Virus record (IMG/VR): IMGVR_UViG_3300014208_000024
Span: 64,001 to 128,000 of that record
Direction: 5' to 3' (one strand)
Length of the DNA stretch: 64,000 bases
From: a virus
Lineage: Duplodnaviria > Caudoviricetes
A program made the translations under genes and the position numbers. The first letter of the stretch is position 1; each line of letters opens with the position of its first letter. The notes below the pieces were generated by a model. That model worked only from the letters and a program-made list of their open reading frames with translations. It searched no databases and was not told the origin of the DNA. This document shows positions 8,804 through 9,002 of the stretch, in pieces.

Positions 8804-8838
8804 AAAAAAAACCCCCGATTCATTTCTGACCGAGGGTT
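8804..8838 (-). terminator. intrinsic terminator (attenuator 3:4 stem) directly before the first tRNA
   Basis: AACCCTCGG-TCAGAAATGAA-TCGGGGGTT followed by T run ending at the tRNA-Ser 5' end. Confidence 0.8.
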
Positions 8839-8862
8839 TCTCTAAAAATATTTTTAACAAAT

Positions 8863-8949
8863 TTAGATAATATGCGGCCAGGAACAAGTAAATCTACTTG
8901 AGCTTCTTCTCCTGGATGACCAATTCATATTTTCAACTTTGTTTTTCAT
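8863..8949 (-). CDS. putative attenuator leader peptide MKNKVENMNWSSRRRSSSRFTCSWPHII
   Basis: Hand-translated 28 codons; codons 10-19 and 23-24 are all Trp/Ser/Arg; lies between promoter box and terminator. Confidence 0.75.
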   Translation of the reverse strand: MKNKVENMNWSSRRRSSSRFTCSWPHII

Positions 8950-8994
8950 AACATTAATAAATATACAAAAAAATTCTTTTTTCAATCTATACGG

Positions 8995-9002
8995 CAAATA
9001 TA
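8995..9002 (-). promoter_or_regulatory. Bacteroidota-type -7 promoter box TATATTTG
   Basis: Matches TAnnTTTG with TGTAAC about 10 nt upstream; the core box recurs at 10395(+), 13641, 27120, 34273, 36109, 47530, 49217. Confidence 0.65.

Follow-up and report, generated by a model that had tools for sequence, protein, structure and literature searches.

A candidate leader-peptide attenuator before a tRNA operon of a large phage, one of six predicted in the same genome

In the leader-peptide attenuators of enterobacteria (trpL, hisL, pheL, leuL, thrL and ilvL), a promoter, a short coding leader with a run of regulatory codons, mutually exclusive 1:2, 2:3 and 3:4 hairpins and an intrinsic terminator before the regulated genes are arranged in that order, and a ribosome that stalls on hungry codons allows read-through. 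Stalling on a shortage of charged tRNA under amino acid starvation is established for the trp and his attenuators. T-box leaders recognise the anticodons of tRNAs and regulate terminators. The usual view of phage tRNA genes is that they are constitutive cargo, which either adjusts codon usage or stands in for host tRNAs that have been cleaved. Here, we describe a locus on the minus strand at 8804-9002 of a 64,000-nucleotide window (bases 64,001-128,000 of the 372,283 bp IMG/VR virus record IMGVR_UViG_3300014208_000024, here named G000; coordinates are those of the window unless marked genome). The locus very probably acts as a ribosome-mediated (leader-peptide) transcription attenuator of a phage tRNA operon, with the order of elements and, as proposed here, the stalling logic of the enterobacterial systems. 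This Ser/Arg/Trp unit, here named op6, is, by its sequence, one of six in G000, and the family is found in several large phages of Bacteroidota type.

G000 represents an uncultured phage, is estimated to be complete, has 29% GC and uses the standard genetic code, under which 88% of it is coding. ARAGORN identified 46 tRNA genes, 45 of them on the minus strand within the first 78 kb and grouped by amino acid, with the remaining one on the plus strand near 338.6 kb; Rfam adds four tRNA-like matches in the tRNA-rich region. The features of op6, which include an open reading frame (ORF), are as follows.

8950-9037, minus strand: promoter and 5'-untranslated-region module, with a -33 TTTG (9026-9023) and a -7 TATATTTG (9002-8995), the two motifs 20 nucleotides (nt) apart
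8863-8949, minus strand: leader ORF of 28 codons plus TAA (ATG at 8949, TAA at 8865-8863), encoding MKNKVENMNWSSRRRSSSRFTCSWPHII
8893-8922, minus strand: control codons 10-19, TGG TCA TCC AGG AGA AGA AGC TCA AGT AGA
8878-8915, minus strand: 1:2 hairpin, CCAGGA (8915-8910)/UCCUGG (8883-8878) enclosing CAAGUA/UACUUG, present in the minimum free energy (MFE) fold
8875-8881, minus strand: segment 2, CUGGCCG, the 5' strand of the antiterminator, ending 10 nt before the stop codon
8826-8832, minus strand: segment 3, CGGUCAG, part of the terminator 5' arm and loop
8804-8843, minus strand: intrinsic terminator, with a stem-loop at 8836-8812, A-U pairs that extend from 8843 and U8 at 8811-8804

A sequence-only reading of this stretch had described the promoter box, the 28-codon ORF with its control codons and a further TCC TGG at codons 23-24, and the 1:2, 2:3 and 3:4 pairings; read on the minus strand, all of these are exactly where it placed them. 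The ORF list carries the leader as part of a TTG-extended frame. The terminator stem is CCCUCGGUCA/UG-A-AUCGGGGG (8836-8812), and its U8 run, as had been claimed, ends directly against the first tRNA gene, a tRNA-Ser that begins at 8803. Because the U run abuts this gene, there is no room for a promoter between the two, and the downstream promoter that the sequence-only reading had named as evidence against itself has no space.

The array behind the terminator has the anticodons Ser-UGA (two copies), Ser-GCU, Ser-GGA, Arg-UCU (two copies), Trp-CCA and Arg-CCU (ARAGORN and Rfam).

8714-8803, minus strand: tRNA-Ser(UGA), first gene of the operon (ARAGORN; Rfam 59.9 bits)
8611-8694, minus strand: tRNA-Ser(UGA), second copy (ARAGORN, Rfam)
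7886-8587, plus (opposite) strand: zinc-finger ORF of 233 amino acids that splits the array (Pfam zf-FCS, E = 1.8e-6)
7766-7852, minus strand: tRNA-Ser(GCU) with an atypical T loop (Rfam 33.2 bits, cut-off 29; relaxed-threshold ARAGORN)
7597-7684, minus strand: tRNA-Ser(GGA) (ARAGORN, Rfam)
7593-7521 and 7515-7441, minus strand: two tRNA-Arg(UCU) genes (ARAGORN, Rfam)
7275-7349, minus strand: tRNA-Trp(CCA) (ARAGORN, Rfam)
7002-7076, minus strand: tRNA-Arg(CCU), last of the array (ARAGORN, Rfam)

ARAGORN at its default threshold misses tRNA-Ser(GCU) at 7852-7766. Once this gene is counted, the leader codons match all six anticodon types, as the sequence-only reading had claimed. The ORF at 7886-8587 is probably an inserted mobile nuclease gene. 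As the AGY, UCC, AGR and UGG codons of the leader refer to tRNAs beyond this ORF, they argue for one regulatory unit, at least before the ORF was inserted. When a terminator at the end of the operon was sought after tRNA-Arg(CCU), the fold of 7003-6962 was no better than shuffles.

Two further elements were seen within the array. An ORF of 60 amino acids without a Pfam match lies between tRNA-Trp and tRNA-Arg(CCU) (7263-7081, minus strand); it begins ATGAAAAACAAACAAGAAAAT, and its first seven codons are nearly those of the leader (MKNKQEN versus MKNKVEN). At about 7431-7353 (minus strand), a tRNA-like gene with an irregular anticodon loop has an acceptor stem and a 9 nt loop containing CCA and is called by no tool.

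The six leaders of G000 were numbered op1 to op6 in genome order, op3 being the Lys/Ile leader and op6 the last.

Genome 4193-4098, minus strand: leader MKNLINITCQSRFQVVFFVQQVQKTLGVSCR, core QSRFQVVFFVQQVQ, before Gln, Phe (two), Arg(ACG) (two) and Val
Genome 24305-24225, minus strand: leader MKTLSLCLCLLLSNCSQSKLTWNDFA, core LSLCLCLLL, before Leu(UAA, UAG, CAA, AAG; five Leu genes in all) and Cys
Genome 31734-31657, minus strand: leader MMTTVIIKKSISIKIKKLNEWDIFA, core IIKKSISIKIKK, before Lys (four) and an Ile(GAU)-like tRNA
Genome 35305-35216, minus strand: leader MRTSNIHINTNTHKHNTTCLSGCDMSIMS, core TSNIHINTNTHKHNTT, before Asn, His and Thr(GGU, CGU, UGU)
Genome 51671-51600, minus strand: leader MGGYPCAADADYGCGTGMFNSKP, core GGYPCAADADYGCGTG, before Asp, Gly, Ala, Tyr, Met and Pro
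op6, minus strand: core WSSRRRSSSR, before Ser, Arg(UCU, CCU) and Trp

The match between a leader and a cluster was scored as the fraction of leader codons read by the tRNAs of that cluster under standard wobble rules. Comparison of all six leaders with all six clusters gave 0.38-0.64 on the diagonal and 0-0.20 off it, and the true assignment ranks first of 720 permutations. Across the six modules, 31/32 distinct anticodons find a cognate codon within the leader of their own cluster. The match extends to codons that are rare in the phage, namely ACG and ACC (5% and 8% of the Thr codons in its long ORFs), CGC (2% of Arg codons) and CTC (2% of Leu codons), and to single isoacceptors: for Thr, the leader has ACA, ACG and ACC and the tRNAs have UGU, CGU and GGU, and Arg is CGC or CGT in the leader before tRNA-Arg(ACG), while it is AGA or AGG in op6 before tRNA-Arg(UCU, CCU). 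It is also specific to the frame. The mean cognate fraction of the leaders is 0.45 in the ORF frame versus 0.12 and 0.13 in the other two; for op6 the corresponding values are 0.44 versus 0.00 and 0.04.

AT-rich DNA is rich in short ORFs, and G000 has 1517 ATG ORFs of 20-45 codons, which served as the background set and might be thought to supply a chance ORF beside an ordinary terminator. However, all 10 codons of the best 10-codon window of op6 are cognate to its own tRNAs, which is equalled by no other of the 1517, and the op6 leader is the single best of them for its own tRNA set. It covers all six anticodon types, as only 0.5% of the short ORFs do. Four leaders, op6 included, have a best 10-codon window that is unmatched in the background for their own cluster, and op3 is in the top 0.8%. 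With five paralogues and 13 further cases (below) that obey the same rule, the probability of a chance ORF is negligible, and we regard this explanation as already refuted.

A 228,886 bp relative of G000, IMGVR_UViG_3300029288_000066 (here G001), has orthologues of five of the six leaders, the Lys leader excepted. Its op6 leader (MKNKVGNISWSSRRRSSSRITCSWPNIF) has retained the frame and length; all 30 bases of the control codons are identical, and the changes outside them are synonymous or conservative. The terminator has been replaced by another hairpin, CCCCCUUCGAC/GUUGAAGGGGG. When a ribosome is placed on the control codons, UUCCUGG-CCGAA forms an 11 bp antiterminator with UUCG-ACUAGGAA, which belongs to the new arm and loop; when there is no ribosome, the 1:2 hairpin forms instead. 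An unconserved leader had been named as a finding that would count against attenuation, and what is seen is an identical control region and a replaced terminator that still pairs with segment 2. In the Asp/Gly leader of G001, there is an in-frame codon deletion upstream of its ATG. As a degenerate pattern for the W-S-S-R-R-R-S-S-S-R core matched only one contig, the related one, among viral and metagenome contigs alike, the orthologue evidence for the op6 leader comes from one genome.

To sample more distant units, IMG/VR was scanned for the post-terminator motif GTTCTTTAAAATATTG, and the tRNA regions of five large records were then fetched. Many independent units with the same layout and other amino acid combinations were returned, including the following.

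Leader MENIVRIGMDCGRDDRFLIG, before Asp (three), Leu(UAG), Arg(UCU), Gly (four), Cys and Met
Leader KHSKHFSSSSKWF, before His, Phe, Ser, Lys and Trp
Leader NLYYLYLYLY, before Tyr and Leu (seven)
Leader QQQPQQHPQ, before Pro, His and Gln
Leader IENMIQEQMQQM, before Glu, Met, Gln and Ile
Leader LLETLLVAMVADLLWLDAED, before Asp, Glu, Val, Leu, Ala and Trp

The main detection run picked the ORF for each terminator by the strength of its duplex with the terminator arm and not by its codon content. Among 19 leader/operon pairs from seven virus records, a set that is not unbiased (the units counted were chosen by eye, and three leaders had been found in a previous screen that ranked candidates by cognate fraction), 13 leaders matched their own tRNA set best and 19/19 had it in the top three. 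The summed match of the 19 pairs was 8.51, and the maximum in 500,000 permutations was 6.42, so that none reached the observed value. Thus, the co-variation of leader codons with tRNA content that had been proposed as a check is present both within G000 (six modules) and among the 19 pairs. The leader of record G004 led us to expect tRNAs for Tyr, Leu, Glu and Pro past the end of the first locus, where they were indeed present. Some ARAGORN-based candidates were discarded, such as L119 because its ORF lies inside a tRNA and L035 because it has too many downstream tRNAs to be informative.

The leaders also match their own terminators. In 17 leaders, duplexes between the 3' part of the ORF and the arm of the leader's own terminator have energies of -10.8 to -20.7 kcal/mol, versus means of -6 to -11 kcal/mol with the arms of other operons, and the best foreign partners include orthologous terminators, for example those of the Gln/Phe and Leu/Cys operons. 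In most leaders, no more than approximately 15 nt separate the end of segment 2 from the stop codon, which is the zone that a terminating ribosome would cover.

It might be argued that the ORF and terminator are an independent small-peptide gene, with the tRNAs expressed constitutively by terminator leakage or from other promoters and the codon likeness incidental. This would accommodate the use of the same promoter module by ordinary protein genes, the resemblance of several leaders to signal peptides (MKTLSLCLCLLLSNC) and the preference of the full-length fold for the terminator. We nevertheless consider it very improbable: the peptides show no relationship from one operon to the next, yet each follows its own tRNAs, the codon match in the 19 pairs was never reached by permutation, each ORF has a 3' part that can pair with the arm of its own terminator, and another promoter has no space between U run and tRNA. 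Sensing without a ribosome, in which leader triplets would pair directly with tRNA anticodons, like a T-box with many specifiers, and set the choice of terminator, we hold to be likewise very improbable. Leader triplets are by definition complementary to the operon's anticodons, but the match is limited to one frame bounded by an ATG and a stop codon, the stop codon lies close to segment 2 in most leaders, and the orthologues differ by in-frame indels and synonymous changes. In addition, an Rfam scan of 6500-13500 at E <= 1 returned no T-box (RF00230) or other riboswitch family over 8804-9002.

The attenuation interpretation of the sequence-only reading is therefore well supported, with every sequence-level prediction that could be tested borne out. 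A short ORF lies between the promoter and the regulated genes, its codon cluster is tied to what the operon supplies, an intrinsic terminator separates it from the first gene, and an antiterminator that depends on ribosome position forms in silico. In the attenuator that we propose, host RNA polymerase would start at the Bacteroidota-type promoter, at a putative transcription start near 8990, and a ribosome would translate the 28-codon leader. When aminoacyl-tRNA for UGG, UCN, AGY or AGR is scarce, the ribosome would stall on codons 10-19 and cover segment 1; segment 2 (CUGGCCG) could then pair with segment 3 (CGGUCAG), the terminator would be blocked and transcription would read through into tRNA-Ser, tRNA-Arg and tRNA-Trp. 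When decoding is fast, the ribosome would reach the stop codon and mask segment 2, so that 3:4 forms and transcription ends at U8 (8811-8804). If the leader is not translated, 1:2 and 3:4 would both form and transcription would likewise end at U8. As the products are the tRNAs that read the control codons, the circuit would be a negative feedback on decoding capacity that is resolved to isoacceptors, and the phage probably makes each tRNA set only when ribosomes decode the matching codons slowly. The sequence itself shows the anatomy, the codon match, the alternative pairings, the conservation and the co-variation; that the leader is translated, how efficient termination is, in which direction and how strongly the unit responds, and what triggers it naturally are inferred.

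The op6 leader region folds at -41.8 kcal/mol (z = -3.84), better than 200/200 shuffles, with energies of -12.6 kcal/mol for the 1:2 hairpin alone, -11.8 kcal/mol for the 2:3 duplex and -19.6 kcal/mol for the 3:4 terminator alone. Nascent RNA was folded without the 3' arm of the terminator and with a ribosome placed at chosen codons, a test that replaced equilibrium folding of full leaders. With the A site on early or middle control codons, segment 3 is paired upstream with a probability of approximately 55-95%; with the ribosome just past the control codons, this drops to 0-26% in five operons and approximately 35-50% in op5. For op6, a ribosome on codon 11, 13 or 19 gives an MFE structure that pairs CUGGCCG (8881-8875) with CGGUCAG (8832-8826), and a ribosome at the stop codon masks segment 2 and leaves segment 3 free for the terminator. 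The masked folds that had been suggested as a check thus return, in silico, the exact 2:3 helix proposed and its loss at the stop codon. In this model, five of the six units need no 1:2 hairpin for the antiterminator to form.

Several observations weigh against attenuation. Equilibrium folds of full leaders with a ribosome mask predicted the terminator at almost every ribosome position, and the switch must therefore act kinetically, like that of a classical attenuator. Of the six antiterminators, that of op6 is the weakest (7 bp, with a modelled occupancy of approximately 58%). In three paralogues (Leu/Cys, Asn/His/Thr and that beginning Asp/Gly), a ribosome at the stop codon leaves segment 2 uncovered, so that their off state needs a 1:2-type pairing or steric effects; in all three, the control codons do form 1:2-type pairs with the segment 2 region. 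The array is interrupted by the opposite-strand ORF at 7886-8587, and tRNA-Ser(GCU), tRNA-Ser(GGA), tRNA-Arg and tRNA-Trp may therefore lie on a transcript other than that of the leader. To our knowledge, transcription-translation coupling has not been characterised in Bacteroidota. Finally, a search of sequencing runs found the sequence in two groundwater metagenomes only, both of DNA and not RNA, and the RNA runs that were returned share 5% of words with the region, which correspond to conserved tRNA parts.

The trigger of the proposed attenuator could be a poor host supply for the AT-rich codon usage of the phage, a loss of host tRNA induced by the phage, or cleavage by an anticodon nuclease; the sequence cannot tell which. 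Tentatively, and with rather less than even confidence, we suggest that the six attenuators form an isoacceptor-resolved sensor panel that detects and repairs tRNA loss, caused by host anticodon nucleases or by the phage's own host shut-off, without a protein sensor. If so, the phage would have a counter-defence logic made of nothing but translation kinetics. Alternatively, the same switch might respond naturally to amino acid starvation or to the general state of translation rather than to the abundance of a particular tRNA or to nuclease damage. Stalling reports charged tRNA, which amino acid starvation also lowers, and uncharged and absent tRNA are indistinguishable from sequence. However, extra tRNA gives no relief of amino acid starvation, which would make the feedback purposeless, and the leaders sample single isoacceptors, including rare codons, which a sensor of amino acids would not need to do. 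We therefore regard starvation as an unlikely natural signal.

When 9060-8780 was used to search G000, a repeat spanning 9037-8950 was revealed, and a profile search found approximately 12 strong copies of this promoter module and several weaker ones (consensus cTTGnTTTTTaATGTAACTTTTTTTATATCTTTGCGTATAGATTG). Besides op6, five strong copies lead into a short ORF, then a hairpin with a T run and finally a tRNA cluster. The other strong copies precede a tRNA(CUA) directly, a GOLLD RNA, a signal recognition particle (SRP) RNA, a structured RNA without an assigned family and two protein genes, and one further strong copy precedes a Y-RNA-like unit and tRNA-Met. Judged by this range of products, the module is a general early promoter. 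Its motif type is that of the Bacteroidota sigma-A promoter (-33 TTTG/-7 TAnnTTTG), and both motifs are present at the right spacing upstream of the op6 leader. The ATG of this leader is at the position where real genes start behind the same module.

Elements resembling boxA were found after the first two tRNAs of op6.

8697-8709, minus strand: boxA-like GTTCTTTAAAATA, after the first tRNA
8581-8569, minus strand: second boxA-like copy, GTTCTTTGAAATG, after the second tRNA

The boxA core is CTCTTTAA, the NusB/S10 site, which GTTCTTTAAAATA resembles, and the motif also comes after the terminators of other attenuators in G000. Elements of this kind behind the switch would probably make a polymerase that has read through resistant to termination across the untranslated array. 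The 16-mer GTTCTTTAAAATATTG is 88 and 107 nt upstream of the 16S rRNA gene in two genomes (Owenweeksia and Odoribacter), and also lies inside tRNA operons of Flavobacteriia, of the Thr-Tyr-Gly-Thr and tRNA-tufA types. As the TTTG/TAnnTTTG promoter and boxA are shared with stable-RNA operons of Bacteroidota, the host is likely to be a member of this phylum. In the cellular Bacteroidota operons that were sampled, the promoter is followed directly by boxA, and as they have no leader ORF, the attenuator looks like the phage's own addition.

In the chromosomes of Thalassobellus and Dokdonia (L147:~4540-4580; L197), the Thr-Tyr-Gly-Thr tRNA operon has a TAnnTTTG promoter. A terminator-like hairpin (GTCCGTTAGAAATAGCGGACTTTTTT) without an ORF lies right after the promoter and before the first tRNA of this Flavobacteriaceae operon, and may be a different control element.

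Other genes and RNAs share the promoter module of the tRNA leaders. The GOLLD RNA (genome 41517-41900, minus strand; L011:1517-1900; Rfam 226.6 bits) adjoins the small SRP RNA (L011:2370-2453; 42.3 bits, cut-off 40), and each is preceded by a separate copy of the tRNA-leader promoter and by a boxA-like motif. As they share this promoter, the phage appears to drive an entire set of stable-RNA operons with a single type of promoter. A PTH2 peptidyl-tRNA hydrolase gene (13673-13175, minus strand; Pfam E = 1.7e-8) also lies behind a strong copy; here, the usual ATG of the module is followed by TTA TAG, and the open frame begins at a later GTG. At genome 21629-21490 (minus strand; L010:1490-1677), a predicted GC-richer transcript of approximately 140 nt, with no ORF and no Rfam match, starts at a strong copy of the promoter and ends at a clean intrinsic terminator (CCCCCGUAUACGAGAUGCGGGGGUUUUUUU).

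Repeated units that resemble permuted tRNAs lie inside tRNA operons just after attenuators (L010:14669-14784 and L011:7789-7897, with similar units at genome ~35125-34920, 24100-23990, 49110-48910 and 46560-46440). They have the form GTGGCAAn..GAGTTACTTCG, T-arm and 3' acceptor strand, spacer, 5' acceptor strand and D-arm, ..TTTCCCTAATTTT. Circularly permuted tRNA genes were considered and dropped, as weak Rfam matches to YrlA (Y RNA-like, a tRNA mimic) cover two of the units.

Three tRNAs have suppressor-type anticodons, two being tRNA(CUA) (10324-10251 and 11409-11335, minus strand) and one tRNA(UUA) (genome 33706-33634). The first tRNA(CUA) gene is directly behind a copy of the promoter module, without a leader. 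The two tRNA(CUA) genes prompted us to consider recoding of TAG, which was rejected given the coding fraction under the standard code; reading TAG or TAA gains G000 nothing. At 13067-12998 (minus strand), ARAGORN reports a tRNA-like gene with an irregular anticodon loop and the two-base anticodon 'tc', and related phages also carry '???' tRNAs with two- or four-base anticodons. A Sir2-family protein (5362-6057, minus strand; Pfam E = 3e-43) is encoded approximately 1 kb downstream of the op6 array. The neighbouring protein at 9409-9783 has no relatives in IMG/VR, and when 8500-9800 was used to query the cultured phages in INPHARED with blastn, the sole match was to the tRNA-Ser gene.

The sequence-only reading knew of no phage tRNA operon regulated in this way. 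A full-text literature search likewise returned no report of leader-peptide control of tRNA genes in a phage or a cell, the one apparent match being unrelated. What appears to be new is thus the application of a known attenuation logic to tRNA genes: transcription of phage tRNAs here appears to be gated by demand, group by group, with the oldest known logic of RNA switching applied to the decoding machinery itself. If this is true, it would explain why the tRNA genes of large phages are grouped by amino acid in separate units, and would give a direct read-out of which decoding capacities limit infection. The debate over codon adaptation versus defence evasion would become testable via swaps of control codons, and the leaders would be compact, programmable sensors of single-isoacceptor availability for synthetic biology. 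Leader-peptide attenuation would also be extended to hosts of Bacteroidota type and to non-coding products.

Among described systems, the pheST attenuator of Escherichia coli (pheM leader) likewise controls a component of the translation machinery, Phe-tRNA synthetase, with feedback on the supply of charged tRNA. It differs in that a synthetase protein is controlled, one amino acid is sensed and the system is cellular, whereas the phage units would control the tRNA genes themselves. T-box riboswitches likewise use a terminator/antiterminator switch in the 5' leader that reports the state of a specific tRNA to genes of the same pathway. However, in a T-box a single uncharged tRNA is bound without a ribosome, by direct contact with a specifier codon and the T-box sequence, while in the phage leaders the signal is predicted to be read in frame by translation. 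In rrn-type antitermination the boxA is similar to GTTCTTTAAAATA, which here is accessory and downstream of the switch and is not the sensor. The closest relatives are the enterobacterial attenuators, among which thrL (Thr, Ile) and ilvL (Ile, Leu, Val) provide a precedent for several amino acids per leader. In contrast to these, the phage units would regulate tRNAs and not enzymes, so that the product would act directly on the sensor codons; they would sense up to seven amino acids per leader; their match reaches single isoacceptors, with AGR and CGY Arg codons in separate leaders; and there are six of them in one viral genome, with a host of Bacteroidota type and a boxA after the switch.

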